Shown: positions 1 to 16,188, numbered from the stretch's first letter. The stretch is DNA of 64,000 nucleotides from Actinomycetota bacterium (GCA_020201525.1 JAIVGO010000095.1:7214-71213); one strand, 5' to 3'. Notes: generated by a model not told the origin, from the letters alone. Made by a program: numbers and translations.

Positions 1-196
1 GACCCGTAGACAGGCCGGCGGGGTTGGCGCGAACGACGAGTATCCGCCCGCTCGGTGCGTCGGCGTAGACCGCGTTGAACACATCGCCACCCTTGGATCC
101 CGCTTGGTACGGCGCCGTGTACGTCGCGGTAGCGGCGTGTGCCACCGAAGGCATCGCGACGGCCAGCGCCGCGAGCATCAGGAGCAACCGCTTCAT
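1..196 (-). CDS. Secreted hypothetical protein, N-terminal fragment (gene runs off the window start)
   Basis: Reverse strand reads MKRLLLMLAALAVAMPSVAHA... with a clear signal peptide. Its ATG overlaps the stop of the upstream amidohydrolase gene (TAATG coupling). Only about 65 codons are visible. Confidence 0.4.
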   Translation of the reverse strand, partial: MKRLLLMLAALAVAMPSVAHAATATYTAPYQAGSKGGDVFNAVYADAPSGRILVVRANPAGLSTG

Positions 197-1938
197 TACG
201 GTCCCCATGGCTGGTTTCTCCGCATCGTGAAAAGCTCACGCCTCGTGCGCGGTCCGATGATTTGGTTCGACGCGAGCGGCAAGGTCTCTTTCGGCGTCAT
301 CTGGTTCAGCACGTATTCGTCGCGCAGCAGTTGCACTTGGTCGCACGCGATCGCGTGGCCGCCACTGTTCTGTGCTTTGCGGTCGCCGAGGTGCGCGTCG
401 GCGTCGATGCCGTACACCGCCGCAGCGTTGCGACCGAAGATCGCGTTGCGGATGCTGAAGCGTGGGTCCGACGGAAGTTGTGTCGGGTCGTTCATGTCCC
501 CGTCGATCCCGTGAGGAAGTTGCGGGTACAGCGCCTTCATCTCGTCGCTGAACTGCATCGCGCGCAGGGCGATGATCTCCGAATGGGGTGAGCCGAACCA
601 CAAGCTGTCGGTGCCCCAGCAAATGCGTTTCGGACCGACGTAGATGATCAGCTTCGCCAGCAGATGCGCTGCCGCGTTCGCGTTACCCATAACGCTGCGC
701 CACGTGGAGCCGATCTCGGCGTACACGTTCGGCACGTTGCCGTCGGGGAAGCGCGTCGCGTCCCAGTTGTTCTCGCGCAAGCTCTTGATCAGCGAATTCA
801 CCGTACGGTCTGCGGAGTTGACGTTGTCGTCGCCCGGATACGCCGCCATCGTTTCGCCGTCGTAACCGGAGTGATAGACGATGAAGTTCACGTCGGGGTT
901 GCGGCTGGCAGCCGGACCGATATCGCGCGGTGAAGCGGCGCGCTGGTCGAAGCCCGGCAACGCAAAACCCTTGTGCGTCGCGATGTTGGCCGGCACCCAC
1001 GGATACTTCTGGTGGATGTCGCGCACCTTGTTGATGAAGCTTTGTCCGACCAGGGGGTCGTCGAAGAACCAGCCGGTCGAATAGGGAACGTCGCCCCATG
1101 CGGGGTACGTCTTCCATCCGCGAATGATGTCGCCGAAGTGCTGCGCGGTCTCCGGACTCGCGTAGTCGGCGGCCGTCGGCATCTGCGCGCGCGTCTCCAT
1201 GAGCTCGAACTCTTCTTGCATGAAGACGGGCTCTTTGCCGCCGAAGCTCGCAACGGTTCCGGCGGAACCGCGGTTCGGCATGACGAACGCGTGCAGCACC
1301 GTGCGGCCCCCTTGGCGGCCGATGTCTTGCGGATACCCGGCGAGGCGGTTCACTTCGTGCACAGTCCACGCCGCACGTGCCAGCGGAAGCGGTTGCGTGA
1401 GCTCCGGCGCCGACGGAACGGCCGAAAGTACCGTCATCGTCGTCGCGGAGTCGAGGAAGAGCTCCTTCAAATAGTGGAATCGCGAAAGGTTTTCGATGGG
1501 ATCGAGCTCGCCGGCGCCGCCACCCCGCAAGACGAAGTCCGACGAACCGGGCGTCGTTGACCCACCGGAACGCACGCCCGGCCGCGCGCCGGTGAGCGGA
1601 CCGGCCTGCGCCCAGATTCCCGCGAAGAACGCTTCGAACGCAGGATTCGTGACGCGCCACATCCCGTCGGATTCCACGTGATGGCTTTGCACGTCGAAGA
1701 TGAACTCCCCCGGCAAGTTATTGACCGACAGCATCGGATCGTTGCTCGTCCATTCGAGATCACACGCTGCCGTCGTATTCGTGTTGTGCGCGCCTGCGTA
1801 GCGGCCCCAGCGGTTCCCGTAGACCTGGTTGATCGCCCAGAAGCCGATGCTGTACGCCATCGCAGTGCGAACGAACTCACGACGCGACATGCCCATGCGG
1901 CGACGCCAGTGCTCGACGGCTTCGTTCTGAAGTGCCAT
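196..1938 (-). CDS. Tat-exported amidohydrolase-2 family metal-dependent hydrolase (TIM-barrel)
   Basis: Track ORF 196..2127(-). Twin-arginine motif SRREFVRTAMAYSIGFWA appears after the internal Met (MALQNEAVEHWRRRMGMSRREF), so the start is placed at 1938. C-terminal motifs ICWGTDSLWFGSPH and IRNAIFGRNAAAVYGID match the amidohydrolase-2 C-terminal signature. Confidence 0.6.
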   Translation of the reverse strand: MALQNEAVEHWRRRMGMSRREFVRTAMAYSIGFWAINQVYGNRWGRYAGAHNTNTTAACDLEWTSNDPMLSVNNLPGEFIFDVQSHHVESDGMWRVTNPAFEAFFAGIWAQAGPLTGARPGVRSGGSTTPGSSDFVLRGGGAGELDPIENLSRFHYLKELFLDSATTMTVLSAVPSAPELTQPLPLARAAWTVHEVNRLAGYPQDIGRQGGRTVLHAFVMPNRGSAGTVASFGGKEPVFMQEEFELMETRAQMPTAADYASPETAQHFGDIIRGWKTYPAWGDVPYSTGWFFDDPLVGQSFINKVRDIHQKYPWVPANIATHKGFALPGFDQRAASPRDIGPAASRNPDVNFIVYHSGYDGETMAAYPGDDNVNSADRTVNSLIKSLRENNWDATRFPDGNVPNVYAEIGSTWRSVMGNANAAAHLLAKLIIYVGPKRICWGTDSLWFGSPHSEIIALRAMQFSDEMKALYPQLPHGIDGDMNDPTQLPSDPRFSIRNAIFGRNAAAVYGIDADAHLGDRKAQNSGGHAIACDQVQLLRDEYVLNQMTPKETLPLASNQIIGPRTRRELFTMRRNQPWGP

Positions 1939-2157
1939 TACTTGCTTCTGCTTGTCCGTCGCTGGCTTGGGAATGAATTCGCCGTTCGAAGCCGGCATCA
2001 CGTCAACCGGCAGATCCTCCGGCAGATCAGGCCACGATCTCTTCCAGCGAATCATTCGCTTGCCTCCCCAGTGCGCTCCATCGGTGTCGGCGGAGCCACC
2101 TGTGACTCTTCGCTTACGGCAGGACATTTCCTGCCCGATGTTCGAATTCTTCCGGTG

Positions 2158-4380
2158 CTATGTAACCTCGAATGCCCCGCGCATGAACGGATGTATTCGG
2201 CAGAAGAACGTGTACATGCCGGTCTGAGTCGGCGTGAACTCCCATGAATACGTGCCCGCAGTCGAGCAACCTAAGCCGACGCATAAGATCGTCGAGTCGA
2301 AGTCGACCGGCGTTCCTTCAGCGGCGGGATAGGGATAGTTCGCGCTCGTTGGGCCGGTACACGGCTCCGGGCACGCGGTGATGGTGTGCCAGACCATTCC
2401 GCTCGTGTCGGGGTTGTAGAACGTGAGCTTCGTATTTACGGCGACCTGCGGGACACCGGCCACCTGCGCGATGTTCTGGTCTACTTGGCCGTAATTGAAC
2501 CCTTGCATCGTGATGGTCGTGCTGGCCAGCGGAACGCGCAAACTCGTCAACGATACGCACGATGACGCCATCGCGCAGTCGGCGTGGTTCTGGCGGGACG
2601 GCATGCTGCCGTGCGTCACGTTCCCACGCAAGCACAACACCGTCTTGCCCGCGTTCGGCTCGCCGGCGGGAACCGTGCCGGGCGTACAGCCGACGTCGAT
2701 GGCGTCCGGGAGACCGGACGGACGCGCCGTGAGATTCGGTCCTTCCTCCCACCCTGCGTCGACGATCGTGTTCGGATCGAAAGGATCGATGGCGTCCGGC
2801 TCGTAGCCGGGGTGGGTCCACGACATTACGATCGACATTTGGTCGTATGCGGAGCCGACGGCGGTGTCGTACACGCCGTTGAGTATCAACTTGTCGCCCG
2901 GTTGCACGAGAATCTTCCACGCATCCTTCGCGCGGCCGGTTCCCGCACTCCCACCGAGCTGCCCGGTCATCGACAGGTCCCACGACTTCGGCGGCGCGCC
3001 GGCGAGCTCCGGGTTGGAGTAGTCGGCGACCGGCGGATTGGACAGGGCCCCGCCGCCCCAGTACACGGCATCGGAGATGAGAATAGGCACCAGCTTGTTC
3101 CCCCGCTTGACGGCGACCTCGTCGCGGAGGCCGCCGGGATGCAAGTGGCCGCCCATGTTGACGAGCACGGCGCATTGCTTCGGGTGGCCGGGACTGATGT
3201 ACCCGAGCTCGGGACAATCCGCGAACGCGGGGTCGGTTGCGTGACCGATGATGCTCTGCGTCTCCTTCCCCTGTTGCAGCGTTGCTTGCGCGCCCGCGTG
3301 TTGCGAGGAGTCAAAGTGCGCACAGTTCTCGCGCGGAAACGTACACACAAGCTTGCCGGTACCAGCGTTTTGGCTGATCGAGACCGTCGTCAGCGGATTG
3401 GTCGGATCAGAAGGCCCGGTGAGCCCGTGGAACGCTCCGTCGTCGACGTGGCCCAATCCCCGCTGAGCGTTGAAGAGCGGGTTGAAGGGCGAGTAGACGT
3501 TCGTGCTGGCGGCGGAACCGTCCCAAGTCAGCTGTGATCCGCCGGCTCCGGCGTCCATCCAGATCGACTTCACGTCCCGTATACCGGTTTGCGTATGACC
3601 GAGCGCATCCTTCCATGTCAGGTTGTCCCCGGCGGTCTTCGCGATGTAATCGATGTCGTACGTGATGTAGACGGCTTGCGTCGTCGGGAGCGCATTGTGA
3701 ATCATGTAGAGCATCTCCCACGCGCTCATGCCTTGCATCGTCCAGCCGTACCCTTTGGGGAACTGCAGGATCGTTTGTTCTTCTCCCGTCGCGAAGAAAG
3801 GTCCAACAACACTGCTCGGACCGTTGACTCCGCCGAGCCAGGTCCCGTGGTGAAGGTGAAGCGTCTCCACCGGCGGAACCGATCCGTCGGCGGACTGCAA
3901 CCCGGGCTTCCACCGCAGCGTGTAGCCGTCGTACATCGGGTGCTCGAACGTCGTGACATTTATGAGCGAGTCGTTCATCCCGGGCCGCGCGATGATCGGT
4001 CCCATCGTGAACTTCAGCCGCCTGCACGCGGCGTAAAAATCCGGATCAGCCTGGATCGCGGCGGCGACCTGGTCGTAGGCACTCTCCGGATCGCATCTGC
4101 CGGACGTGTAAACGGACGACGGAAGGGTGCCGTCGAGCGCCCCTGTGAAGTCGAGCTCGTAGGTCGGGATGCAATTGAGACCGGCCTTGTCGTGGTATGT
4201 CTCGTCGGGGTTGCTGGGGTCGGGATCCTGGTTCGCGTTGCCGGGGATGGTGTTCGCGTCGAGGACGTGCGCGATCGGCGTGCAACGCTGGTCGGCCGAC
4301 GAGGTGAGGGTCGTACCGGCTGGGACTAGGAATCCGGCGATGAACATCGCCGCACACGCCGCGGACAATTTCCGTCGCAT
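2158..4380 (-). CDS. Large secreted copper protein, paralog A: C-terminal amicyanin-like cupredoxin (type-1 Cu) domain plus an unassigned His-cluster N-terminal domain
   Basis: Track ORF 2158..4713(-). Start placed at internal MRRKLSAACAAMFIAGFLVPAGT (signal peptide, GAGGAGG RBS upstream). C-terminus is ...HTITACPEPC...YTFFCRIHPFMRGAFEVT (His, Cys-x2-His-x2-Met as in amicyanin CTPHPFM). N-domain carries ETLHLHHGTW and GGHLHPGG motifs. Paralogous to the 5296..7122 gene. Confidence 0.7.
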   Translation of the reverse strand: MRRKLSAACAAMFIAGFLVPAGTTLTSSADQRCTPIAHVLDANTIPGNANQDPDPSNPDETYHDKAGLNCIPTYELDFTGALDGTLPSSVYTSGRCDPESAYDQVAAAIQADPDFYAACRRLKFTMGPIIARPGMNDSLINVTTFEHPMYDGYTLRWKPGLQSADGSVPPVETLHLHHGTWLGGVNGPSSVVGPFFATGEEQTILQFPKGYGWTMQGMSAWEMLYMIHNALPTTQAVYITYDIDYIAKTAGDNLTWKDALGHTQTGIRDVKSIWMDAGAGGSQLTWDGSAASTNVYSPFNPLFNAQRGLGHVDDGAFHGLTGPSDPTNPLTTVSISQNAGTGKLVCTFPRENCAHFDSSQHAGAQATLQQGKETQSIIGHATDPAFADCPELGYISPGHPKQCAVLVNMGGHLHPGGLRDEVAVKRGNKLVPILISDAVYWGGGALSNPPVADYSNPELAGAPPKSWDLSMTGQLGGSAGTGRAKDAWKILVQPGDKLILNGVYDTAVGSAYDQMSIVMSWTHPGYEPDAIDPFDPNTIVDAGWEEGPNLTARPSGLPDAIDVGCTPGTVPAGEPNAGKTVLCLRGNVTHGSMPSRQNHADCAMASSCVSLTSLRVPLASTTITMQGFNYGQVDQNIAQVAGVPQVAVNTKLTFYNPDTSGMVWHTITACPEPCTGPTSANYPYPAAEGTPVDFDSTILCVGLGCSTAGTYSWEFTPTQTGMYTFFCRIHPFMRGAFEVT

Positions 4381-4543
4381 ACGTACCTCCTCGCAAGGCC
4401 CGACGCGCCGGTCCCCTGCCGGACGCAATTTCCGACCAGACGGTAACATTTTTCGTGACAGATTGTCTAAGTCCTCCCCTTCCGCGTGATTTTTCTCACT
4501 TGTGGTGCTTGCTACGCGGGCGGATCGGTACCATCTACCCCGA

Positions 4544-5185
4544 ATGGCGAAACGGGCGGAGTACCTGGGACCGGAGCGGCGCCGGCCGCTCGTGCTCGAC
4601 GCCGCCCAGGCGATCTTCGCCGAAGGCGGCTTCACCGACGCCTCCATGGCGGCCATTGCCGAGCGCGCGGCCGTGTCCAAAGCCGTCCTATACGACTGCT
4701 TCCCCGGGGGCAAGCAAGAGATCTATTACGCACTCCTCGACCGCGGCGAGGAAGTCTTCATGCAACACATGATGGGCGTGCTCGATCACACGAACCGCCT
4801 TCCGCTCGAAGAAGCGTTGCGGGAAGGAATCGCCGCCTTTCTCGATTACGCGGAGCTGAATCCGAACGGATTCCGCATCATCTTCGGCGACGCCGGTACC
4901 TCCGATCCGGAAATCGCGCGCCGCACGGAGCGAACGAAAGAGCTCATGGTCGCGAAGATGGGCGAGCGAACGCGCCAGATCATGACCGAGGCCGGGGTCC
5001 CGATCACGCCGCTTGCCGACACATACAACCGTTCGATCGTCGCCGTCGCAGAAGAGATGGCGCGCTGGACCCTGCGTGATCCTACGATCCCAAAAGAAGC
5101 ACTCGTCGAGACCCTCGTCGCGTGGTTCATGAAAGGGTTCGAGAGCCTCATCCCCGGCGACTCGTGGAGGCGGCCGCTCCCGTAA
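4544..5185 (+). CDS. TetR family transcriptional regulator
   Basis: N-terminal HTH FAEGGFTDASMAAIAERAAVSKAVLYDCF is typical of TetR_N. Start taken at MAKRAEYLG. The gene is divergent from copper-protein A and directly upstream of copper-protein B. Confidence 0.75.
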   Translation: MAKRAEYLGPERRRPLVLDAAQAIFAEGGFTDASMAAIAERAAVSKAVLYDCFPGGKQEIYYALLDRGEEVFMQHMMGVLDHTNRLPLEEALREGIAAFLDYAELNPNGFRIIFGDAGTSDPEIARRTERTKELMVAKMGERTRQIMTEAGVPITPLADTYNRSIVAVAEEMARWTLRDPTIPKEALVETLVAWFMKGFESLIPGDSWRRPLP

Positions 5186-5295
5186 GGCGGAGTTGCCGGT
5201 TCTCCGCTTAGCGACATATTGACGTAAAACGACCGATCGGTCACTATGGGCGTACATTTCCGTTTGCCCGTGTTCGTCCTAACTTGGAGGACTCA

Positions 5296-7122
5296 ATGAA
5301 GCCACGGTTCCTTATCGCCCTGGCGGGGGCTGCGCTCGTGTTCACCATGCTCCCGGCGCATGCGAACGACCCGGTCTCGGACCTAACGAGCGCACCGAAT
5401 AGATATGTCCCGCAGCCGGCGGGGACGGCAACAACTCTGCGCTACGTATTCGGCCCGTACGTCGTTCCGCCGGGGGTCGACAAGAACCAGATCACCGTCG
5501 ATCTCCCGCTCACGACGGGCTTCATCACAAAAGTCTTCCCGAACCTGATCAATATTCGAACCGGGGAAGAGTTCCCCGAAACCGAGGCGCACATTCACCA
5601 CGCTCACTGGTTTCGGATCACAAACGACAGTCAGTACGAGGATTACGACTACGGCGCTCTCTCTTGGGTCTTTGGCACCGGCGAGGAGCGGACCGGCGGT
5701 AGCCTCCACGACCGCGAGTCCCCCACTGAGGGCTGGACGTACGGGATCTTCGTGGACGGCACCACCCCGAACGCGATCATCTTCATGCTCCACAACAAGA
5801 CCGCTTCAGCAATCTCCGGCTACATCACACTCGACGTTGAATTCACCTACGGAAACCGCCCGGACATCCTCGCCAACACCGGCAAGGACGTCCACCCTCT
5901 GCGCGGCGTCCTCACGGGCACGACGCAAGACGCGATCGCCGGCTTCACAAACGGCGCCCGCGCCTCCAACGGCGTCCTGATGCAGGACTACACAACCGAC
6001 TTCGCGGGCACGCTCATCGCGTCGGCCTCCCACATGCACCCGGGCGGGAAATGGGTCAACGTCGTCAATCTCGGGCCGAAGAACGCGAACGGCAGCTTCG
6101 TATGCGGCCAGGCCGACCTGGACAACGATGGTCTGCCCGGTGTCACGCTCTTTGTTTCGAGGAAGGTGGACCACGTGACGGCGGCGTGGCCGTATTCCGA
6201 GGACTACCAGATGGCCGGCACGCAAGGAGGTTTCCGCGCGCCCATCCACCTCGGAGACGTCATCAGGCAATACGGCGTGTACGACGTGAAGCGTACGGGC
6301 ACCGCGGGACTTCCGTCGGCTCTGTACAAGATCGATCCGCTCGACCCTTCGCCGACCGCGCCGACCTCCCTCAATTCACTCGATGGCCGGTCACACGCTT
6401 ACTACGAAGCGATGTCGTACACGGGCTTGTACAGCGACACGGAGCAATTGCCAACCGTGGGCGCCCAAGGCATCACGTCATCGCAGTGTGCCGTCGAGAA
6501 CTTCGAGCCCAAACTGGTGTCGTCGAACGGCTTCTCGTTCTCGTCGAACCCGCGCGAGACGCATATCACTCGCGAGTGCCCGCTCGGAGATGGGACGTGT
6601 GACGGCGGATGGGACCACCTCGACGACGTGTGCGGCGTGAAGAACAACGACGGGAGCGATGCCCCTGCGTGCGAGCCTGAACCTCACACGGTTTACAGCG
6701 ACGGCCCGATCGTCGACACCATCCACGTCGCCAACTTCAAGTACGTGTGGGGAGATCAAGGATTCGGCGCCCCGCTCAATATGCTGCCACGGGTAAAGCT
6801 CGGTACGTCACTTCGGCTCGTCAACGAAGACTTCGGGATCGCGGTGCGTCATACGTTCACTTCCTGCCCAAGTCCGTGCGACGGCACGTACGTCGCCAAC
6901 TATCCCGTTCCAGATGGGCTGTTCGACTCAGGGAAGCTCGGCAACTTCGACCCGGTGGACGGCGGCTTGTCGTGCGACAACTTCGATGAGGCCTGCGCCG
7001 GGAGCGATACGCTCCCGGTGTACGACATGCCGATCGACTCACGATTTACCGAGGGCACTACGTACACGTATTACTGCTCTATTCACCCATGGATGCGTGG
7101 GGCTTTCAAAGTCGTGGCGTAA
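5296..7122 (+). CDS. Large secreted copper protein, paralog B: C-terminal amicyanin-like cupredoxin domain plus a His-cluster N-terminal domain
   Basis: Track ORF 5284..7122. Signal peptide MKPRFLIALAGAALVFTMLPAHA, GGAGGA RBS. C-terminus RHTFTSCPSPC...YTYYCSIHPWMRGAFKVVA. N-domain motifs ETEAHIHHAHW, SHMHPGGKW, FMLHN...YITLDVEF are shared with paralog A. Confidence 0.7.
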   Translation: MKPRFLIALAGAALVFTMLPAHANDPVSDLTSAPNRYVPQPAGTATTLRYVFGPYVVPPGVDKNQITVDLPLTTGFITKVFPNLINIRTGEEFPETEAHIHHAHWFRITNDSQYEDYDYGALSWVFGTGEERTGGSLHDRESPTEGWTYGIFVDGTTPNAIIFMLHNKTASAISGYITLDVEFTYGNRPDILANTGKDVHPLRGVLTGTTQDAIAGFTNGARASNGVLMQDYTTDFAGTLIASASHMHPGGKWVNVVNLGPKNANGSFVCGQADLDNDGLPGVTLFVSRKVDHVTAAWPYSEDYQMAGTQGGFRAPIHLGDVIRQYGVYDVKRTGTAGLPSALYKIDPLDPSPTAPTSLNSLDGRSHAYYEAMSYTGLYSDTEQLPTVGAQGITSSQCAVENFEPKLVSSNGFSFSSNPRETHITRECPLGDGTCDGGWDHLDDVCGVKNNDGSDAPACEPEPHTVYSDGPIVDTIHVANFKYVWGDQGFGAPLNMLPRVKLGTSLRLVNEDFGIAVRHTFTSCPSPCDGTYVANYPVPDGLFDSGKLGNFDPVDGGLSCDNFDEACAGSDTLPVYDMPIDSRFTEGTTYTYYCSIHPWMRGAFKVVA

Positions 7123-7141
7123 TAGAGGGCGTCGTGTGCGT

Positions 7142-7167
7142 GAGGCCGCCCCTTCGGGGCGGCCTCA
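7142..7167. terminator. Bidirectional terminator hairpin (GAGGCCGCCCC-TTCG-GGGGCGGCCTC) between convergent genes
   Basis: Perfect 11-bp GC-rich stem with a TTCG tetraloop. It lies in the 64-nt gap between the stop of the 5296..7122(+) gene and the stop of the 7187..7663(-) gene. Confidence 0.5.
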
Positions 7168-7186
7168 ATCTTTCAGGCTTGCCTAA

Positions 7187-7663
7187 CTAAGTCGGGTTCG
7201 GAAGGAGCACGAGCGTTCCCGTCATCGCCGTCTTATGTGGCTCGCAATAGAACTGATACGTTCGGCCTGTTATCGCATAGCCGTCGTCCAGCCCGTAAAT
7301 CGGCGTGGGATTGCCGATGACTTTGAGAGGCGACCAGAACAGCGGGCAACGACCCGGAAGGTAGAAGTTCGATGCCGGATAGCACCACGGCGCCGATCCG
7401 TCCGGGCGAATATCACAAGCGTTACTTCCGTTGCTCGCGGTATGGCACGAAATGACGTTGTGCAACGCCAGAGCGTCGGCGTTGACGAAATTGAGCGGCT
7501 GGCCGGTCACGGCAACCATCGCGGGGGTCAGGAAACCGGTCGTCTGTCCGTCCGGTGCTGCGACGATCGTCGGGCCCGGTGAGGTATCGTCCGCCTGAGC
7601 CGGCGCGAATGTCAGCGCTGCCAAGGCGACACACCCCAGAATGGTCATCACTTTCTTTCGCAT
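7187..7663 (-). CDS. Small blue copper protein (plastocyanin/azurin-family cupredoxin) with signal peptide
   Basis: MRKKVMTILGCVALAALTFAPAQA signal. Candidate ligands: His in NFVNADALALHNV and C-x-P-H-x4-M in YQFYCEPHKTAMTG. About 158 aa. Last gene of the PQQ-propeller operon. Confidence 0.7.
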   Translation of the reverse strand: MRKKVMTILGCVALAALTFAPAQADDTSPGPTIVAAPDGQTTGFLTPAMVAVTGQPLNFVNADALALHNVISCHTASNGSNACDIRPDGSAPWCYPASNFYLPGRCPLFWSPLKVIGNPTPIYGLDDGYAITGRTYQFYCEPHKTAMTGTLVLLPNPT

Positions 7664-7693
7664 GGGCTGTACTCTCCCTCTCTTGATCGTTTG

Positions 7694-9367
7694 TTAAAGC
7701 CCAACCTTCATCGGACGAAAAGCGATCACGAAACCGTTTGGCATCGACGGGTACGGCTGTCCGTCGCCCGAGCCGATCGACGTGAGTCCGACGCCTACCG
7801 TCGCGTACACCGTGTTACGCGCCACCGTCACGCCGCCCCACGTGAATGTGGGATCGGCCCCGCTGTTCGCGCCGAGCTCCATCGGCCGGTGCAGCAGCGG
7901 CGCACCCGTGCCGGCGTCGTAGGCGTCGAGAAAACCCTTGAGGTCGGGCGTATAAACGATGCCGTTCGCAACCGTCGCCGGTGGCCCCCAATGCACGCCG
8001 TCGCCGATCGGCGTCGCCCACTTGATGGCCCCAGCGTCGCGATCGAGCGCCGTCATATACCCGACAAGTGAGTGCGGCACGTACAACGCCGTGCCGTCGT
8101 ACGCCGCGGATCCGACGATGCCGCCAACCGGCGACGGGACACCCATGACGGTGCTCCACACGTTCGGCATCTCACGAGCCCCCTCGGAATCCGCGGGACC
8201 GATGTAGTGCGCCGGATCCGGATCGAACACGTGATACACGCCGGACTTCTGACCGGCGCCGATCAATCGACGACCACCGCGGTCGGTGAAGATGTTGGGC
8301 TGCGAGCCGAAGTCGAGATCCAGGTGCTCGCAATCGAAGCCGAATGAGAAAATAAGCGGACTTCCAGACGTCGCGTCGCAGGTTCCGTTGAAGTCCGACG
8401 CAGCGTCAAGGTATTGCTCGGTGTCGCCGCGGTAATAGGCAAGCACTCGCCCGACGGCTGCATGGGACCGGTCGAGGTCGATCTTCAGCACGGCATTCGT
8501 GCGGTCGCTCTTGTGCTGATAATTGAACGGGTTTCCCGTGCCCACGTAGCCGACTTTGTTCGGGCCGTCGATTGAGATCGTCGACCAGACCGCTGCGCCG
8601 GCATCGCCGGTAGCGAACTGATCGTCCGGGATCGACCACTGGTGCTTGACCAGCGCGCCCGTGGATGCGTCGAGCAACACAGACGCCCCCCGAAATTGCA
8701 GCCGATCGTACGCGTCACCTTCCGCAAGCGTTCCCGACACGCCCGCCCACACCATCGGGGCGAGCGGTCCGGGTCCGTCGGAATCGAACACAATGGGGCT
8801 CGCAACCGCGTCCGAGCCCGGCTGGTTGTCCACGGTGTGGGTCCACACCTCGTGGCCGTCCGCTTCCGACAGCGCCACGACGTACGGGCTCCCAACCTGG
8901 GACACGTATGCGTACACCAAGCCGTTGGCAACAGCGAGCGACGAATAAACGCCGAACGGAAGGAAGTGAGACCACACGACGTCGCCGCCGTATGCGTTGA
9001 GTGCGAACACCCAACCCGGCTCCTGAAATCCCGTGCTCGTCGCGACGAAGACGCAGCCGTCGATCTCGATCGGGTAGCCGGTTATCTCGTTGCGACCGAT
9101 GAAGTTCGGATTGATCGCTTGAACCGCATCGTTGGCGGAGAACGTCCATGCCGGTGCCAGCAGCGGAACATTCGCTGGCGTCAACGTCGATTCGAGGGGT
9201 TGCGAATGCGACCCGGACAGATTCCCGCCGAACATCGGCCACTCGCCGCCGGGCTTCGCGTCCGGCACGCACGTCACTTGTGCGCGCGCCGGCGTTCCGG
9301 CGAGCGCGGCAAGAATCAGAAGCGCAGTCCCCAGCGTGCTCCGAATCCCTCTCGCCGGACGCACCAA
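7694..9367 (-). CDS. PQQ-like beta-propeller protein (quinoprotein dehydrogenase-like), secreted, paralog 1
   Basis: Signal peptide. N-terminal GGEWPMFGGNLSGSHSQPL...NVPLLAPAWTF matches the W-x-M-x-G-G-D...R-Y-S...NV..L..AW start of quinoprotein alcohol dehydrogenases. Repeated propeller-blade motifs. Only 4 nt separate it from the upstream paralog. Confidence 0.65.
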   Translation of the reverse strand: MVRPARGIRSTLGTALLILAALAGTPARAQVTCVPDAKPGGEWPMFGGNLSGSHSQPLESTLTPANVPLLAPAWTFSANDAVQAINPNFIGRNEITGYPIEIDGCVFVATSTGFQEPGWVFALNAYGGDVVWSHFLPFGVYSSLAVANGLVYAYVSQVGSPYVVALSEADGHEVWTHTVDNQPGSDAVASPIVFDSDGPGPLAPMVWAGVSGTLAEGDAYDRLQFRGASVLLDASTGALVKHQWSIPDDQFATGDAGAAVWSTISIDGPNKVGYVGTGNPFNYQHKSDRTNAVLKIDLDRSHAAVGRVLAYYRGDTEQYLDAASDFNGTCDATSGSPLIFSFGFDCEHLDLDFGSQPNIFTDRGGRRLIGAGQKSGVYHVFDPDPAHYIGPADSEGAREMPNVWSTVMGVPSPVGGIVGSAAYDGTALYVPHSLVGYMTALDRDAGAIKWATPIGDGVHWGPPATVANGIVYTPDLKGFLDAYDAGTGAPLLHRPMELGANSGADPTFTWGGVTVARNTVYATVGVGLTSIGSGDGQPYPSMPNGFVIAFRPMKVGL

Positions 9368-9371
9368 GGCA

Positions 9372-11090
9372 TCACCGCAACACGATCAAGGAGTCGGACT
9401 GGGCGATGTACAGCGAGTTGCGCGCGACGGCAAGACCCTGGCTCGATGCGCTGGTAGCGGCGGCGCCGACATCTTGCGACAGGATTCGCTTCCCGAGCAG
9501 CAAGCCATTGGACGCATTGACCATCGTGAGATTGCCTTGAGTGTCGAGCGCATACACAACGCCGTTCGCCGTCGTGACCGACTCAAAGTGGTCCGGGTCG
9601 GGATCCGGTAGCACCCAGCGGTAGCGTCCTTGATCGGCGGACAGCCCGACGAGCTGGCCGGGTTGCGTCGCGAACGTGTAAACCTGGTTCGCAATGCCCA
9701 ACGCCGCGTCCACCGCCGGCGAGGATGCATTGCACGCGGCGCACGGCGAGCCGACGAGCGCCGTCCACGCCTTCGACATGTCGTCCGCATTTACCGCGTG
9801 ATAGACGCCGGACTTCTGCAGATCGCCGACGAGGGTTCGCGTCTCGAACGTGGTTCCGTTCCCCACGCGAACCTTGAAGAGGCTCGGCGATGCGCCGAAG
9901 TCGAGGTCGAGCTGCAAGCACGGCACGCTCCAGATCACGACCACCTTGTCGCCGAGGTTGTCGCACGCCGGCTGCTGATCGAGGCCGGGGAAATACTGGT
10001 CGTTGTTTCCCTTGTAGGAACCGACGATCTTGCCCCAGCTCGCACGCGACGGATTGCCGTCGATCTTCAGCAGCGCGTTCGCATATCGTGGCTCGCCGCC
10101 GTTCGACTGGCTCTTCTTGTTCGCCGGGTTGCCGCCGCACGCATACAGGTAGTTCGTGTCGGGATCGAAGGCCGCCGTGCACCAGACCGACGCGCCTCGG
10201 TATCCCGCGGCCATTTCCGCGTCGCTGATTGTGTACTCGTGGACGAGTCGAGTGCCGCCCGTCGCTCCGGGCGCTGCGTTAAAGCACACCGACGGTAACG
10301 TGAACGTGGCGGGATCGCATGTCGGTGAAGCGTCCAGGATCGCGTAACCACCGCGCGCCGGAAGAGCCGTTCCCGGGTCCGGGATTGTGCCCTCGGACCC
10401 GTACCAGCCTTGGAAGATCTTGCCGTTGAAGTAGGTCGGGCTCGCGCCGATGCCGGAATCTGTCTGGCCGGCATCCACCACGGACTCCCACATCTCGGCG
10501 CCGGTGTTCTCGTCGAGCGCGGCGACGTAGGGTCCGGTCGCCGGTGCCGTCATGATTCCGTGCTCGTCGTACTTCGCCGGAGCACCCGGGCGCGTCACGC
10601 CGACGTACACGACGCCGTTCTCCACGGTCGGCGATCCGGTGATGATGTTGCTTCGAAGCGACAATGCGGCTCCTTGCAGCTGCGTCGCCCACACGACGCG
10701 CTGCTTGCCGGTACTCGCGCCGGTCGCCGGATTGGTGTCGGCGTTCAGCGCCATGACCCATCCCGTCGTCGTCGCGAGGAACACGCAGCCGTCGGCGACG
10801 ACTGGGGTGTTGTCGAAGCCGCCTCCGTTCAGAATCGGAGTTCCGTTCGACCGCTCGGCGTTGCCGGTGCGGAACACCCACGCCTTGCCGATATTGCCCG
10901 CCGTCGATGCGTTGATCTGGTGTTCGTCGGGCTGGAAGCGGTCCCCGGACAGCGAGCCGCCGGCGGAGCGCCACTCCCCTCCCTGGGATGACGCGTCCGC
11001 GCAGCCGGGTACAGTCACCGCCGCATGAGCCGGCAGAAGTGCCGCGAGCATGAGAATGCCTATCGCCAAGCACGCCAAGCGAGCCTTCAT
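9372..11090 (-). CDS. PQQ-like beta-propeller protein (quinoprotein dehydrogenase-like), secreted, paralog 2
   Basis: Track ORF 9372..11159(-). Start placed at MKARLACLAIGILMLAALLPAHA (signal peptide, GGGAGGAG RBS). GGEWRSAGGSLSGDRFQP...NIGKAWVF motif. Paralog of 7694..9367. Confidence 0.65.
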   Translation of the reverse strand: MKARLACLAIGILMLAALLPAHAAVTVPGCADASSQGGEWRSAGGSLSGDRFQPDEHQINASTAGNIGKAWVFRTGNAERSNGTPILNGGGFDNTPVVADGCVFLATTTGWVMALNADTNPATGASTGKQRVVWATQLQGAALSLRSNIITGSPTVENGVVYVGVTRPGAPAKYDEHGIMTAPATGPYVAALDENTGAEMWESVVDAGQTDSGIGASPTYFNGKIFQGWYGSEGTIPDPGTALPARGGYAILDASPTCDPATFTLPSVCFNAAPGATGGTRLVHEYTISDAEMAAGYRGASVWCTAAFDPDTNYLYACGGNPANKKSQSNGGEPRYANALLKIDGNPSRASWGKIVGSYKGNNDQYFPGLDQQPACDNLGDKVVVIWSVPCLQLDLDFGASPSLFKVRVGNGTTFETRTLVGDLQKSGVYHAVNADDMSKAWTALVGSPCAACNASSPAVDAALGIANQVYTFATQPGQLVGLSADQGRYRWVLPDPDPDHFESVTTANGVVYALDTQGNLTMVNASNGLLLGKRILSQDVGAAATSASSQGLAVARNSLYIAQSDSLIVLR

Positions 11091-11243
11091 GGGTGCTCCT
11101 CCCCTGAGCCGAGGGCGCCCGCTTCCCCCGAAAACCGGCGCGCCTCCGGACAATTCCAACCAAGTGGTCGGCTTTGTTCGCCGCGGGGCGGCTCATCTCC
11201 TGCCCCATCCGTCCGGTTTACCCCACATCAGGTGGCGCAAAGC

Positions 11244-11277
11244 AAGGACGGCGCCACGTCAGGCGGGCGCCGTCCTT
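11244..11277 (-). terminator. GC-rich hairpin (AAGGACGGCGCC-N10-GGCGCCGTCCTT) downstream of the methyltransferase gene
   Basis: Perfect 12-bp inverted repeat with a 10-nt loop, between the methyltransferase stop (11292) and the PQQ-propeller start. No U-tract, as is common in high-GC genomes. Confidence 0.35.
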
Positions 11278-11291
11278 CGCGGTGCGTGCTT

Positions 11292-12392
11292 CTATGAGTG
11301 CAGGCGGTAGAAGCGCAGGCCGGGGTGCTCGATCGGCAACACCTCGACGCTCTTGAAGCCGGCCTTGGTCGCGTAGTCGCGGAAGGTCCGCTCCCGGATC
11401 ACCGCTCCCGTGCCGGCCGACGGCGCGTCGGCAAGGCCCATCGGCAAGCACCACACCAAGCTGGCGCCGTACAGGAATCGCTCCATCTCATCCGCCGGAG
11501 CCGTAAAGCTGTCGGCCGTCTTCTCGTCGGCGATGATGACCGCACCACCGGGAGCGACGAGGCGCTTCACCGTCTGGAGGAACTCGACGGGGCGGCCGAG
11601 ATCGTGAACGGCCTCGAAGACCGTGACGACGTCGTACGTTCCGGTCAGCGAGGAATCCGACGCGTCGGCGACGTGGAACTCGACCCGGTCCGCCACGCCT
11701 TCCTCGGCGGCATTCTTGCGAGCGAGTGTCACCGAATACTCGTCGAGGTCGTACCCGTCGATTTGAACTTTCGGATAGCCCTTCGCAATTGCGATCGTCG
11801 GCCATCCGCCGCCGGAGGCGAGGTCCGCGATCCTCGCCGGTGGATCCGCTTGCAGCCGGTCGTGTACGTCGGGAATTTGCGGCAGCCACTCCTGCGCGAG
11901 CTGGCTCACATACCCAGGCTTGTAAAAGCCGGCTTGGACGTCGACGGCCTCCGGACCGTACTCCGCATACGGAACGCCTCTCCCGGTCCGAAACCCTTCG
12001 ACGAGGGGATCGACGACCCGGCCGACGACCGCGACCATCTGCGGGATGGGGCCGATGAATGCCGGAAACGTGCTATCGAGCAACGCGAGGGCGTGCTCCG
12101 CCGGCAACGTATACCGGCGCGCGTCCCCAGGAGCGGACTGGTCGTCCACCGTCAGGATCGCGGCGGCCGCTTGCTGCTCGAGCCACTCACGTGTGTACCG
12201 CTCGTCGATGGATGCTTCCTTCGCCAGCTCCGCCGCGGTCATGCCGCCTTTCTCCTGCAACGCCTCGTACAGACCGAGCTTCTGTCCGAAATACATCGTG
12301 AAGAGCTCGGTCGCGCCGAGACCCGCCATGAAGACGCGTCCTGCGAACTCCTCGATCTTCGCCTCGTCCAGCTGCATCTCTTCTGCCATGGC
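11292..12392 (-). CDS. Class I SAM-dependent O-methyltransferase (small-molecule OMT-like, with N-terminal winged-helix/dimerisation region)
   Basis: Track ORF 11292..12470(-). Start at MAEEMQLDEAKIEEFAG. Motif I DLASGGGWPTIAIAKGYP and the overall layout resemble plant/actinomycete-type O-methyltransferases. Confidence 0.6.
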   Translation of the reverse strand, partial: AMAEEMQLDEAKIEEFAGRVFMAGLGATELFTMYFGQKLGLYEALQEKGGMTAAELAKEASIDERYTREWLEQQAAAAILTVDDQSAPGDARRYTLPAEHALALLDSTFPAFIGPIPQMVAVVGRVVDPLVEGFRTGRGVPYAEYGPEAVDVQAGFYKPGYVSQLAQEWLPQIPDVHDRLQADPPARIADLASGGGWPTIAIAKGYPKVQIDGYDLDEYSVTLARKNAAEEGVADRVEFHVADASDSSLTGTYDVVTVFEAVHDLGRPVEFLQTVKRLVAPGGAVIIADEKTADSFTAPADEMERFLYGASLVWCLPMGLADAPSAGTGAVIRERTFRDYATKAGFKSVEVLPIEHPGLRFYRLHS

Positions 12393-12508
12393 TGCTCCTC
12401 CTTCGTCGGTGACATCGGTACGGCGCCAGGAACGGCAACGGTGCGCCAGGCTGAATCTGGCAGTAGACAAAGCCCCCGCCGTAGCGGGGGCCTTGTCGTG
12501 ACACCGCC

Positions 12509-12760
12509 TTAGATCTGGATCGTTTCGACTTGGATCGCCCGCGAGTGCTCACGCTCTTCGGGCCACAGGTATCCCAAGGCCTCTTCCGCGCTCGACGCCT
12601 CGACCGGGGTCCAGCTCGCGTGCTCCCCGAACGGACACGGGCAGTAGTACGTCGCGCCTTTGATCGCCGGGTTCAGCTTGTCCTTGACCTCTTCGTATGC
12701 CTTGAACCCCGCTTCGCACTCCTCCGGCCGGTGACGGTTGATGATCATGAACATTGCCAT
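12509..12760 (-). CDS. Small hypothetical protein with CPCP motif
   Basis: Track ORF 12509..12802(-). Start at MAMFMIINRH with a GGGAGGAAGG RBS. Contains YYCPCPFGEH. Lies between the STAND ATPase gene and the O-methyltransferase on the same strand. Confidence 0.4.
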   Translation of the reverse strand: MAMFMIINRHRPEECEAGFKAYEEVKDKLNPAIKGATYYCPCPFGEHASWTPVEASSAEEALGYLWPEEREHSRAIQVETIQI

Positions 12761-12831
12761 GACCTTCCTCCCTTTCTTTCGATCGGCTTCCCTGCCCCGC
12801 ATGCGCCAGATTGGGCCTGGCGACGCCAGAA

Positions 12832-15800
12832 CTAAAGAATCCAGAGGACCGGAGATTCGGGCGCGTAGCTACAGAAAGTTCCGGTCCGGATTGCCGAGCG
12901 GAGATGTCGCGCGAGCGCCGGATGCGCAGAGTCGACCCGCTTCAACGTGTCGCGGATGCGTTCGGTCACTGCTTTGCGCGCACGTTCGCCGGGGTCTCCC
13001 GTTGCACGAGCGCGTCCGCCGAGTCCGTACGCCAATGAAAGCTCGTGCGTCAATGCGTCAAGCTCTTCGCGGGCGCGCGCCGACCGGCCGGCGTCGTTGA
13101 AGGCTTCGGCTTCGTCGATCTCTTCCTGCAAATCGCCAATGCGAGCGCGATATGCCGCTCGTGCCTGCTCGTCGAGCACGGGGCCGGTCCCTCCGGGCCG
13201 TCTTGCTTCGAGTTCGCCGTGGTCCACGCCCGCCCGCACCGCGCCGAACGCTCCGTCCGATGACGCAACGAGGTCACCCGCGTGAATCTCCTTGTGCGGT
13301 GAGCCGAGCAGCAGGGCGATGTCGCGCAAACCCTTCGAATCCTTGAGGCGCACGGTCTCACCGGCGTAGCCGAGCGTCCAAAACTCGCCGTCGCGCACGA
13401 ACGTGTTTGGCTCGGCGCTCCGCACGTTCGGAAGGAGCGCTTCCGCGGCTTTCGCGTGCCACGTCAGACCGAGCGACCGGTACGTTTCGACGGCGTCGGT
13501 GAGCAACGCCTCGGCAGTATCGACATCGCTCGCGTCTCCGCGCGACAAGAGGACCGTTGCTCGGTCACGCTTTGTGTGCGCCGTCAAAACCGCGGCACCG
13601 GCGTCGCTGTGACGCTTCATCGCGTGATCAAAGTGCTTCGCAGCATCGTCCCAGCGGTGCAACAAGCCCGCAAGCACGCCGAGGTGCCGGGCCGCCGATC
13701 CGAAAAAGGCCGCCGCGATCCCGTCCACGGCCATGAGGTCTTCGTACGGCCGCAACTGCGCATACAACGACGCTGCGGTGTCTCCACTTTCGCCGACGAG
13801 CGCGCATGCCTCCGCGAGGTAGATCATCGACGACAACCATTCGGCATCTTTCGGGAGCTCGGAAAAATCGCTCGCGGCAAGCCGCTGCAGCTCGGCGCGC
13901 GCGTTCACGGCATCTCCGCTCAGCGCGCGCAGCCACGTCGTAGGAGCACTTAGTGACGGCCAGTTGACGATATCGGGAAGCTCGCTCAACATCTCGTCCC
14001 ACAAGCGCTGCGCGTCTTCCGGATGATCTGCCGTCGCCGCTATGGACAGCCGCAAGGTGCCGATAAGCAGTTGCGCATTGTGACTGTGTGCGCGCGCGCC
14101 GACGGCTTCTGCGTCGGTGGCATGGCGTCGCGCCTCGTCAATGTGCCCGGCCATCAAAGCGCGCATGCCGCGGAACAACGGGACATACCACTGATACAGC
14201 GGCTGACGAAGATTTTCCGCCGAGCGTTCATACAGGTCCACTTCGGCGTCGAAAGCGCCGACGTCGCCGAGCTCGAGCAGAGCTTCGATGCGGTGCCGGC
14301 GTCCCAACAGAAGCATCTCCGGGTCGCACAAGCAGATCGGACACGACACGATGGTGCATTCACCGTGGATTGACGTGGGCGAGTCGGTGAGCGAGATCAT
14401 CTCCGTCGCAGCTTGGAGCCGAGCCTCGACGTAGTCGGGGCCCGACATGGCATCACAGAAGCTGCCCAAAGCGTGCGCGAGCGCAGCCGAGTCACCGACG
14501 CGCCGCGCCATTTCGACGGCTTGCGTGCTCAAGGAAACACGAGCGTCGAGCGGCGCCCGGAAAGACGTCGCAACCGAGAGTCGTGCGAGAAGCCACGCGC
14601 GCAGCGCCGAATCCGCGGCCGGCAAGGCGCCGAGAGCGGCTTCCAGCAAAGCGATCTGCCGGTCGTCGAACATCGCGACCTCGAAACCGCCCAGGCCCGT
14701 CCCCAATCCGAGCGCGGCGTGTGCGAGCTCTTCAGGCCGGTTGCGGCGCACCGCCAGCTCCACGACGTCCTCATAGGTCTTTCTTGCTTGTGGTAAGTCG
14801 CCGGCCTTCGTCAATGCATCGGCAAGGCTCAGCATGACCGGACCCAGATCGTCGTCACCCGTCGCCGACATTCCGGTGACGGCGCGCGCGAAATGCTGTG
14901 CAGCTTCGTCGTACGCGAGGAGCTTCAGGGCGCGCGCGCCGGCGCGAACGGAATACGTCACGGCTTTTTTCCCGCCGGTATCTTCGGCGACGGCATTGAA
15001 GAAGTGGTGAGCGAGCGCGGTAAGGTGCGGATCGAGGTTCGACTCGAACATCTTTTCGATCGCTTCGCCCGCCAGCCGGTGCAACGCGGCGCGATGAGAC
15101 GTGCCGAGGCCCTCATACAACGCTTCCCGCACCAGGGCGTGTGCGAACTGATACCTGCGCGGCGAATCGGGAAGCGGCGACACGAGTCGCGCTTGGGTCG
15201 CCTCATCGAGCAGCTCGAGAGCGCGATCTCGATCGACGTCCCTCACGCGCGCGACCAAGTCCACGTCGAAGGATCCTCCGAGCACCGCCGCCACACCGAG
15301 GAGCTCGTTCGCGTGTTGCGACAGCCGCGCGAAGCGACGTTCGAGCACCTCTTTCACCCCTTGCGGAACCGTGAGCCCGGCGGTTGATCCCATCTGCTTC
15401 TGGGACTGGAGAAGCCGGGAAACTTCCTTGACGAAAAACGGATTACCGGCCGTTCGTTCGACAACGACTGCCGTCAGCTTCTCCTCGGGCACGGCCCCCG
15501 CGGTTTCGGTCATGAGCTTGGTCACTTCGTTCGCATCGAGGCCCGTGAGTGCGATGCGCTCTCTCGTCAGATCCGCAAGCATGCCGGTCAGGTCGTGAGC
15601 GGGCCCGACGTCGACGTCGCGATATGTGCCGAGCACGAAGACATGCGCCGTGCGCAACTCCGCGGATAGAAACCGAAGGAGAAGGAGCGACGAGCGGTCG
15701 GCCCAGTGAAGGTCGTCGAGCACGAGCATCAGCGGACGTTTCGCGCCGGCGACCCGAAGGACGGTGGAAACCGCGTCGAACATCCGGAAACGCGCTTGCT

Positions 15801-16188
15801 CCGGATCCGACGGAGGCTCGGCCGCGACTACCGGCATCTGCATGCGAAGGTCCGGCACCATCATCGCGACGTCGCTCAGGGCGACGCCGAGGTCTCGCGC
15901 GAGGGTGAAGCCGCGATCGGCCAGAAGCGCGCGAATGATTTGAATCCACGGCCAAAATGCCGGGGCGCCCTCGCCTTCCCAGCACGCTCCCCACAGCACC
16001 TGCGCGCCCCGATCCGACGCGATACGTCCGCATTCCTCGGCGAGCCTGCTCTTCCCTATTCCCGCTTCACCCGACAGCAGCACGAGGCGGCCGCGTCCGC
16101 CGAAGGCATCGTCGAGCCGTGACGAGAGCTCGGCGAGGTCACGTTCGCGGCCGACGAAGTCGCTGGGCGCCTGAGCCGACTGGTCCAT
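12832..16188 (-). CDS. STAND-class P-loop ATPase (AAA_16/NB-ARC-like) with long TPR-like helical region; putative MalT/AfsR-like regulator, C-terminal domain unassigned
   Basis: N-terminus FVGRERDLAELSSRLDDAFGGRGRLVLLSGEAGIGKSRLAEE (Walker A) then LMLVLDDLHWAD (Walker B). About 600 aa of helical repeats follow. No LuxR or SARP HTH was recognised. The C-terminal approximately 200 aa are conserved-looking but unassigned. Confidence 0.65.
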   Translation of the reverse strand: MDQSAQAPSDFVGRERDLAELSSRLDDAFGGRGRLVLLSGEAGIGKSRLAEECGRIASDRGAQVLWGACWEGEGAPAFWPWIQIIRALLADRGFTLARDLGVALSDVAMMVPDLRMQMPVVAAEPPSDPEQARFRMFDAVSTVLRVAGAKRPLMLVLDDLHWADRSSLLLLRFLSAELRTAHVFVLGTYRDVDVGPAHDLTGMLADLTRERIALTGLDANEVTKLMTETAGAVPEEKLTAVVVERTAGNPFFVKEVSRLLQSQKQMGSTAGLTVPQGVKEVLERRFARLSQHANELLGVAAVLGGSFDVDLVARVRDVDRDRALELLDEATQARLVSPLPDSPRRYQFAHALVREALYEGLGTSHRAALHRLAGEAIEKMFESNLDPHLTALAHHFFNAVAEDTGGKKAVTYSVRAGARALKLLAYDEAAQHFARAVTGMSATGDDDLGPVMLSLADALTKAGDLPQARKTYEDVVELAVRRNRPEELAHAALGLGTGLGGFEVAMFDDRQIALLEAALGALPAADSALRAWLLARLSVATSFRAPLDARVSLSTQAVEMARRVGDSAALAHALGSFCDAMSGPDYVEARLQAATEMISLTDSPTSIHGECTIVSCPICLCDPEMLLLGRRHRIEALLELGDVGAFDAEVDLYERSAENLRQPLYQWYVPLFRGMRALMAGHIDEARRHATDAEAVGARAHSHNAQLLIGTLRLSIAATADHPEDAQRLWDEMLSELPDIVNWPSLSAPTTWLRALSGDAVNARAELQRLAASDFSELPKDAEWLSSMIYLAEACALVGESGDTAASLYAQLRPYEDLMAVDGIAAAFFGSAARHLGVLAGLLHRWDDAAKHFDHAMKRHSDAGAAVLTAHTKRDRATVLLSRGDASDVDTAEALLTDAVETYRSLGLTWHAKAAEALLPNVRSAEPNTFVRDGEFWTLGYAGETVRLKDSKGLRDIALLLGSPHKEIHAGDLVASSDGAFGAVRAGVDHGELEARRPGGTGPVLDEQARAAYRARIGDLQEEIDEAEAFNDAGRSARAREELDALTHELSLAYGLGGRARATGDPGERARKAVTERIRDTLKRVDSAHPALARHLRSAIRTGTFCSYAPESPVLWIL

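Follow-up and report, generated by a model that had tools for sequence, protein, structure and literature searches.

What kind of oxidation does the gene cluster at the left end of the window carry out, and which of its genes belong together? The window is the whole stretch of 64,000 nucleotides (nt) analysed here, from an Actinomycetota bacterium (GCA_020201525.1, JAIVGO010000095.1:7214-71213), with a GC content of about 64%. A preliminary description had listed there an extended secreted redox cluster that included two unnamed 'Cu proteins', and every gene on that list was found, in the same order and on the same strands. Absent from it was the identity of the two proteins, here called CuA and CuB. 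Both look like PHM (peptidylglycine alpha-hydroxylating monooxygenase) and DBH (dopamine beta-hydroxylase) in their two-domain fold, to which a type-1 copper domain is fused. These two enzymes are the standard examples of non-coupled two-copper monooxygenases and have been regarded as eukaryotic and ascorbate-driven.

CuA and CuB are paralogues, and neither has a match in Pfam or NCBIfam. The family to which they belong (hereafter the Cu family) was examined in an alignment of 48 sequences (A1), CuA included, with identities down to 27%. The conserved metal-type residues of the two-copper domain are H99, H101, H102 and H166, and H246, H248 and M373 in CuB, and correspondingly H176, H178, H179 and H229, and H413, H415 and M516 in CuA. 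The fused type-1 site would be formed by H519, C594, H597 and M600 in CuB and by H666, C728, H731 and M734 in CuA. All of these CuB residues are invariant in the 48 sequences, except that H519 is conserved wherever its column is present. The first seven conserved residues of CuB reproduce the PHM pattern HH…H / HxH…M, and the 64 residues between HH and the following H are a spacing that we take to be the same in PHM (H107/H108 to H172). In a set of the PHM type, His-His...His (H101, H102 and H166 in CuB) is the electron-accepting site, CuH, and His-x-His...Met (H246, H248 and M373) the O2-activating site, CuM.

The AlphaFold model of CuB built on the 48-sequence alignment has a predicted local distance difference test (pLDDT) score of 88 and shows two beta-sandwich (jelly-roll) domains in succession, with the fold of PHM. 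The model places H101, H102, H166, H246, H248 and M373 on strands of domain 1 or domain 2, where PHM has its ligands too. A Foldseek search with this model returned DBH and twelve PHM entries as its top 13 hits (E-values 1.6e-7 to 1e-5, probability 1.00). The alignment of the C-terminal domain with amicyanin extends over the C-x2-H-x2-M loop, and the domain's set of His, Cys, His and Met in a cupredoxin fold is that of a type-1 (blue) cupredoxin. By sequence, only this cupredoxin tail of CuB finds matches in the PDB.

An exhaustive phmmer search with the N-terminal 361 residues retrieved only 103 cluster representatives (clusters at 50% identity) among 1.84 billion. The hosts of the Cu family are uncultured Actinomycetota (unclassified classes, Thermoleophilia and Acidimicrobiia), Thermoplasmatota and one Halobacteriales metagenome-assembled genome (MAG), and no cultured organism was found among the hosts of its members. 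In public annotations these proteins appear as 'hypothetical protein', 'plastocyanin' or 'cupredoxin domain-containing protein'. The sole related Pfam signal in the 48 members was a weak match to SURNod19 in two of them (E 0.2).

The arrangement of the genes around CuA and CuB is more than chance, because the order of the core recurs in other genomes at 31-74% protein identity. We searched 83 loci encoding CuB relatives (79 GTDB species representatives and four metagenome contigs; loci are numbered with the prefix L) with eleven proteins of the window, counting as neighbours all genes within 10 kb of a Cu-protein gene. Propeller genes were neighbours in 27 of the 83 loci, the amidohydrolase in nine and TetR in five. 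The conserved core comprises positions 1-11090 of the window and recurs in uncultured Actinomycetota. In its layout, X, the amidohydrolase and CuA are divergent from TetR and CuB, which are in turn convergent with the cupredoxin, propeller 1 and propeller 2 (Table 1). This arrangement is kept in the nearest relatives (L001, L002, L008 and L010), where the amidohydrolase is 56-71% identical to that of the window, TetR 52-74%, CuB 37-58% and the propellers 33-59%, and a search seeded with the amidohydrolase instead of CuB led to the same set. The cluster genes also occur as single-strand operons (L085 and L086), and a Thermoleophilaceae MAG encodes a Cu protein, the amidohydrolase, two successive propellers, a 165-aa protein and a TetR in one co-directional operon. 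All core proteins carry export signals visible in their translations: Sec for the copper proteins, the propellers and X, and Tat (twin-arginine translocation) for the amidohydrolase. The proposal of a co-localised, secreted, copper-based oxidation module is supported, and the module is conserved.

Table 1. Features of the cluster and of the adjoining unit (coordinates in the window; aa, amino acids)
Feature	Coordinates	Strand	Description
Gene X, 5' part (65 codons)	1..196	-	Sec-signal protein of ~181-185 aa; runs off the left edge
Amidohydrolase	196..2055	-	Amidohydro_2-family protein with Tat signal, 619 aa; Pfam PF04909, 37.6 bits vs cutoff 26.4
CuA	2158..4380	-	740 aa; Sec signal, N-terminal extension, PHM/DBH-like two-copper domain, C-terminal type-1 cupredoxin
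Candidate TetR operator	4431..4449		TCCGACCAGACGGTAACAT; CuA/TetR divergent promoter region, 51 nt from the CuA start codon
TetR	4544..5185	+	TetR-family regulator, 213 aa; Pfam TetR_N, E 5e-11
CuB	5296..7122	+	608 aa; Sec signal, PHM/DBH-like two-copper domain, C-terminal amicyanin-like type-1 copper domain
Inverted repeat	7141..7167		Perfect, 12 bp; between the convergent CuB and cupredoxin genes
Small cupredoxin	7187..7663	-	Secreted type-1 cupredoxin, 158 aa; Pfam Copper-bind, 22.9 bits vs cutoff 21.2
Propeller 1	7694..9364	-	PQQ-like, eight-bladed, 556 aa, Sec signal; Pfam PQQ, PQQ_2
Propeller 2	9372..11090	-	PQQ-like, eight-bladed, 572 aa, Sec signal; GGAGGAG ribosome-binding site before the ATG at 11090
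Hairpin	11244..11277		12-bp perfect stem, 10-nt loop, GC-rich; just 3' of the methyltransferase stop codon
Methyltransferase	11292..12389	-	Cytoplasmic SAM (S-adenosylmethionine) methyltransferase; Pfam Rv2258c-like winged helix-turn-helix and methyltransferase domains
Mini-protein	12509..12760	-	83 aa, CPCPFGEH motif; no family match
STAND ATPase	12832..16188	-	1118 aa; Pfam AAA_16 (E 1e-29) and TPR; C-terminal module of ~190 aa

Gene fusions are strong evidence that the cupredoxin, propeller and PHM-like proteins act together and exchange electrons, since what are three separate genes in the window are one polypeptide elsewhere. At 15 loci in different Thermoleophilia MAGs, one stop-free open reading frame (ORF) of 1159-1525 codons contains four parts, namely a signal peptide with a cupredoxin bearing the type-1 motif, a propeller, a Lys/Arg-rich linker and a PHM-like part with its own cupredoxin. 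The propeller is full-length (profile positions 6-483, E about 1e-130 to 1e-160), and the PHM-like part is complete, including its cupredoxin (profile positions 31-559, E about 1e-190). Fusions of a propeller with a cupredoxin were found at six further loci (L054, L055, L061, L066, L086 and L087), and in loci from Acidimicrobiia, Frankiaceae, Solirubrobacterales and Thermoleophilaceae the cupredoxin is located at the C-terminus of the propeller. Around the fused Thermoleophilia genes, no neighbour was conserved in more than five of the 15 loci.

The linkers between the propeller and the PHM-like part are of low complexity (L022 7778-11599 and 14 similar Thermoleophilia loci). A similar Lys/Arg-rich stretch lies inside the insertion of the PHM-like part and is disordered in the CuB model.

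Judged by their sequences, the two propellers, which are paralogous and 30% identical, are homologues of PQQ (pyrroloquinoline quinone) alcohol dehydrogenases. A profile of 21 propeller-family sequences (A3) retrieved the type II quinohemoprotein alcohol dehydrogenases 1yiq and 1kv9 by hmmsearch with an E-value of 1e-33, and hhalign matched the family to residues 8-368 of ADH IIB with a probability of 99.85%. The PQQ-stacking Trp, the metal-binding Asn of GTGN and the PQQ-contacting Lys of KNG (here KSG) are retained; the corresponding residues W303, N321 and K426 are invariant or nearly so in the profile and align to the ADH IIB positions. The fusions of related propellers to cupredoxins imply a redox cofactor, which may be PQQ or another. 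A copper enzyme in the manner of thiocyanate dehydrogenase was also considered for the propellers and rejected, as they contain no invariant His or Cys.

The copper ligands of the small cupredoxin are predicted to be the His in ALHNV and the Cys, His and Met in FYCEPHKTAM, and the protein contains four further Cys. Orthologues are encoded at L001, L002 and L085, and the same domain is fused to propellers elsewhere. At L085, one of two tandem paralogues (13258-13695) is devoid of the C-terminal His (CTLVPGM versus C-x2-H-x-M) and may be unable to bind type-1 copper.

We propose, and give an even chance to, an extracytoplasmic copper monooxygenase system, encoded by the core, in which quinoprotein-like dehydrogenases feed electrons via blue-copper carriers. 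The propellers would oxidize a substrate, perhaps the alcohol made by the monooxygenase. Single electrons would pass from the free cupredoxin to the fused type-1 copper domain of CuA or CuB and from there to CuH, while CuM would activate O2 and hydroxylate a C-H bond. The blue-copper domains would take the role that ascorbate has in animals.

Several points weigh against this proposal. The Pfam families of PHM and DBH, Cu2_monooxygen (PF01082) and Cu2_monoox_C (PF03712), matched none of the 48 Cu-family members even at E <= 10, and a Pfam scan of 10 weak matches from the exhaustive search gave no tie to Cu2_monooxygen either. The ligand geometry of CuB is the one suggested by the sequence pattern and the strand positions alone, and the direction of electron flow is assumed. 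PQQ alcohol dehydrogenases have a vicinal Cys-Cys pair and a metal-binding Glu, both absent from the propellers, where non-conserved residues take their places in the 21-sequence profile, and the alignment of the catalytic Asp is ambiguous, with a Cys-containing insertion of about 25 residues. Scores for NCBIfam TIGR03075 were 58.5 and 73.3 bits, far below the cutoff of 480. Tetrathionate hydrolase is among the matches of the propeller profile, and some PQQ-like propellers are not redox enzymes. No pqq biosynthesis gene (pqqA-E) was found in the 64-kb window; the 'PQQ operon' of the preliminary description stands for PQQ-like beta-propeller proteins and not for synthesis of the cofactor. Lastly, the part given to the amidohydrolase is one that we infer, and no amidohydrolase or other conserved neighbour was detected near the fused Thermoleophilia genes.

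A more specific form of the proposal is a self-sufficient prokaryotic system of the PHM/DBH type, which in Thermoleophilia would be one secreted polypeptide. The propeller domain would oxidize the hydroxylated product or a co-substrate, and two electrons would return via the two blue-copper domains, for a net RH + O2 -> R=O + H2O with no soluble reductant. We put this forward tentatively and regard it as possible rather than probable.

The same fusions and neighbourhoods would fit equally well with the main rival, a dehydrogenase-oxidase chain without hydroxylation. This would be a secreted 'quinoprotein oxidase' in which the propellers are the sole substrate-converting enzymes and their electrons reach the PHM-like site via the cupredoxins, to be spent there simply on the reduction of O2, with water or H2O2 as the product. 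Lacking a conserved partner, the fused Thermoleophilia proteins match what would be expected of a self-contained oxidase, and uncoupled PHM is known to release H2O2. However, the full CuM set His-x-His...Met, which serves C-H activation in PHM, is invariant in the family, and the presence of two divergent Cu paralogues, one of them tied to the amidohydrolase, suggests substrate-specific chemistry and not a generic electron sink. We consider such a chain unlikely.

Turning to the CuA branch of the monooxygenase system, the match of the amidohydrolase to PF04909 covers only profile positions 143-289, that is the C-terminal half. The protein, which is 100% identical to P0121, belongs to a family with at least 1012 homologues that are 53-76% identical across classes, and it has no solved relative in the PDB by sequence. 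Its N-terminus consists of a conserved region of about 55 residues, the motif SRREFVRT, the hydrophobic stretch AMAYSIGFWAI and then AGA, a probable cleavage site. These Tat features were judged by inspection; R58, F61, V62 and R63 are invariant in 36 homologues, as are D121, Q123, H125, H126, H194, H361, H395 and D483. The first-strand motif is Q-x-H-H and not the usual H-x-H, and H361, H395 and D483 are the predicted His/His/Asp metal ligands of the TIM barrel. By analogy with known Tat-exported metalloproteins, the split between Sec for the copper proteins and Tat for the amidohydrolase would fit a non-copper metal loaded in the cytoplasm.

Gene X is coupled to the amidohydrolase through the overlap of its ATG with the amidohydrolase stop codon (TAATG at 196-200), and it has no Pfam match. 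The full gene is present on contig JBHELV010000002.1 of the MAG GCA_046262895.1 (L084), to which the window is 99.97% identical; there, X is the last gene of the CuA operon and is followed by a convergent gene. Within positions 1-12055, the two sequences differ by four mismatches in 12,055 nt, one of which turns residue 23 of X from Pro into Thr. Orthologues of X, at 35-48% identity, lie 3' of the amidohydrolase at L001, L002 and L085. Since nothing else is conserved next to the fused Thermoleophilia genes, a second sub-module, built around CuA-type proteins, would be formed by CuA, X and the amidohydrolase with its Tat signal; in it, the hydrolase, with X, might process the product of the CuA branch.

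CuA-like and amidohydrolase genes are adjacent and co-oriented at L054, L055, L061, L076, L086 and in the window. This adjacency would also suit a two-step dealkylation like that of PAM (peptidylglycine alpha-amidating monooxygenase), in which CuA hydroxylates the carbon beside an amide nitrogen, the amidohydrolase takes the role of the lyase PAL and splits the carbinolamide, and the propellers and cupredoxins give the electrons. The conservation of the amidohydrolase across classes also suggests one defined small substrate. Against this scheme, PAL is an NHL propeller to which the amidohydrolase bears no homology, and the Cu-family consensus is GG two residues before HxH, where PHM presumably carries its carboxylate-binding Arg. 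The cluster also contains no precursor peptide or peptide-related gene. Taken together, this makes a PAM-like scheme improbable.

A dedicated TetR regulator had been proposed for the module, and in the nearest relatives TetR does travel with it. Orthologues at 52-74% identity adjoin the cluster at L001, L002, L007, L008 and L010, which are the five of the 83 loci with a neighbouring TetR, and at L086 a TetR is located at the operon end. A search for inverted repeats with a 6-nt seed in the TetR intergenic regions retrieved nothing, and the candidate operator in Table 1 was found by comparing orthologous regions. In the TetR-divergent intergenic regions of six loci, among them L001, L002, L007, L008 and L010, C..ACC-N4/5-GGTA is invariant, and the xACC-N4/5-GGTA dyad occurs once in the window against 0.02 expected by chance. 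The dyad at 4431-4449 is a plausible TetR operator, through which TetR would repress the divergent promoters. The inverted repeat between CuB and the cupredoxin gene is likely to be a bidirectional terminator; a scan for sigma-70 promoters and terminators was uninformative in such GC-rich DNA, with 0 promoters and terminators at chance level.

In the two closest relatives, L001 (563-2361) and L002 (345-2118), a DrrA-like ABC transporter pair (ABC_tran and ABC2_membrane) flanks the cluster, which is not so in the contig of the window. A DM13-domain protein adjoins the cluster in the closest relative (L001 16337-16891). In animals, DM13 accompanies DOMON domains, which are also found in DBH-type proteins.

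The right border of the module is the point at which we depart most from the preliminary description. This had drawn a single extended module over positions 1-16188 that would modify aromatic or lignin-derived compounds, with O-methylation and the mini-protein included and under joint control of TetR and STAND. The genes are indeed adjacent and on the same strand as the propeller operon, the Amidohydro_2 family includes aromatic-acid decarboxylases and hydratases, and DBH hydroxylates a benzylic carbon. Yet the methyltransferase, the mini-protein and STAND were found within 10 kb of a Cu-protein gene in none of the 83 loci. In addition, a hairpin lies between the methyltransferase and propeller 2, which marks the border between the core and the neighbouring unit, and the methyltransferase and STAND, unlike the secreted core, have no export signal. 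A metagenome scan for the mini-protein retrieved a single distant relative (26% identity), on an unrelated contig (L088 3653-7232), where it is flanked by a STAND-like gene and a methyltransferase (33% identity). Neither copper genes nor any for a propeller or an amidohydrolase were found nearby, and the co-occurrence of the three suggests that the trio is a module of its own. Owing to the gene content of the 83 loci, the hairpin boundary and the recurrence of the trio at L088, the conserved module is confined to positions 1-11090, and 11292-16188 is a separate neighbouring unit outside it. The extension to the trio is contradicted, and we regard one module reaching 16188 as quite improbable; for the core itself, the results speak neither for nor against aromatic or lignin-derived substrates. 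Less credible still is the absence of any redox system, with PNGase-F-like, glycan-acting Cu proteins, binding or hydrolytic propellers and a functionally meaningless co-localisation. Against it stand the invariant His and Met of the PHM pattern, the fusion of a complete type-1 copper site and the repeated cupredoxin fusions, which electron transfer would explain and which are otherwise difficult to account for.

Control of the redox genes by STAND is unlikely, because the trio at L088 has no redox genes nearby, and the likely targets of STAND are its own neighbours and not the copper cluster. Its C-terminus had been described as matching no recognizable DNA-binding domain, and by sequence this was confirmed: a domain search gave no Pfam family at E <= 1 save a spurious coiled-coil, Trans_reg_C and GerE remaining unmatched. 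The C-terminal module (12835-13452, about 190 residues) has at least 368 homologues; many consist of the module alone (170-240 residues), and others join it to a receiver, FHA, adenylate cyclase or TPR domain, a pattern typical of an output domain. A structural model of it most resembles the winged-helix DNA-binding domains of the OmpR/PhoB type, with an inserted helical hairpin. With moderate confidence, this predicts a divergent winged-helix DNA-binding module with an insertion. An exact look-up of the STAND protein returned no record, which may be explained by mismatches between the window and the GenBank contig.

Elsewhere in the window, positions 32538-38849 contain a possible second secreted copper locus. 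It encodes a 290-aa Cupredoxin_1 protein (37977-38849, plus strand) and a 322-aa beta-propeller-like protein (34939-35907, plus strand), as well as two large ORFs in which Pfam finds little or nothing (32538-34733, minus strand, and 35968-37944, plus strand); the Cu, amidohydrolase and propeller profiles gave no match there. At 24353-25378, universal stress protein domains are fused, unusually, to a Rieske [2Fe-2S] domain at the C-terminus, and the ORF at 60036-62366 (776 aa) is rich in GC at third positions and matches no Pfam family.

If the proposed copper monooxygenase system is real, it would be a natural, genetically tractable system for the electron route to CuH and on to CuM. It would also point to a new oxidative activity of secreted proteins in Thermoplasmatota and in uncultured Actinomycetota, which are abundant in soil, and would for the first time place a large amidohydrolase family that lacks annotation, as well as quinoprotein-like propellers with cupredoxin partners, in a functional context. 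Should the self-sufficient form hold as well, it would be the first prokaryotic monooxygenase system of the PHM/DBH type. Searches of the full-text literature, which also covered MtN19, turned up nothing that describes this cluster, quinoprotein-cupredoxin fusions or a PHM-like family in prokaryotes, and neither a paper on Angelarchaeales blue-copper proteins nor a 2026 preprint on PQQ covers the system. A table in a 2020 review places PHM and DBH among eukaryotic copper proteins only (PMC7435645).

Compared with known systems, the neighbouring STAND protein differs from the STAND regulators MalT/LAL and AfsR/SARP, the latter with an OmpR-like winged helix, in that its winged-helix-like module is C-terminal and has a long helical hairpin insert. 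The amidohydrolase shares with the Amidohydro_2 enzymes ACMSD, LigI, LigJ and LigW a PF04909 match above the cutoff over the C-terminal half and the His, His and Asp in the expected strands. Unlike these enzymes, it is about 600 residues long and Tat-exported, has a long conserved N-terminal region and the Q-x-H-H motif, and is always accompanied by Cu and propeller genes.

Type II quinohemoprotein alcohol dehydrogenases (1yiq, 1kv9 and 1kb0) also couple a homologous propeller to a one-electron carrier domain, but in these the propeller is fused to a cytochrome c domain, whereas the carrier here is a cupredoxin and not haem c. A small type-1 copper domain with a short C-x2-H-x2-M loop that is the dedicated electron partner of a catalytic subunit is shared with the pair of amicyanin and methylamine dehydrogenase; in copper nitrite reductases that carry a tethered cupredoxin (for example 6hbe and 9cck), it is fused to the catalytic subunit, as in the Cu family. 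In contrast to both, the catalytic partner here would be a PHM-like two-copper domain and not a TTQ (tryptophan tryptophylquinone) dehydrogenase or a type-2 copper nitrite reductase.

With PHM, DBH and tyramine beta-monooxygenase, the Cu family shares the two-domain fold and the CuH/CuM ligand pattern, but it is prokaryotic and has no sequence match to them that is detectable with Pfam. Compared with PHM and DBH, it has a fused amicyanin-like type-1 copper domain, to which a propeller and a second cupredoxin are added in some lineages, it contains a long insertion in the second domain and no DOMON domain, and its electron donor is presumably a protein instead of ascorbate. The novelty, in our view, lies in protein electron donors being built into a fold of the non-coupled two-copper monooxygenases.

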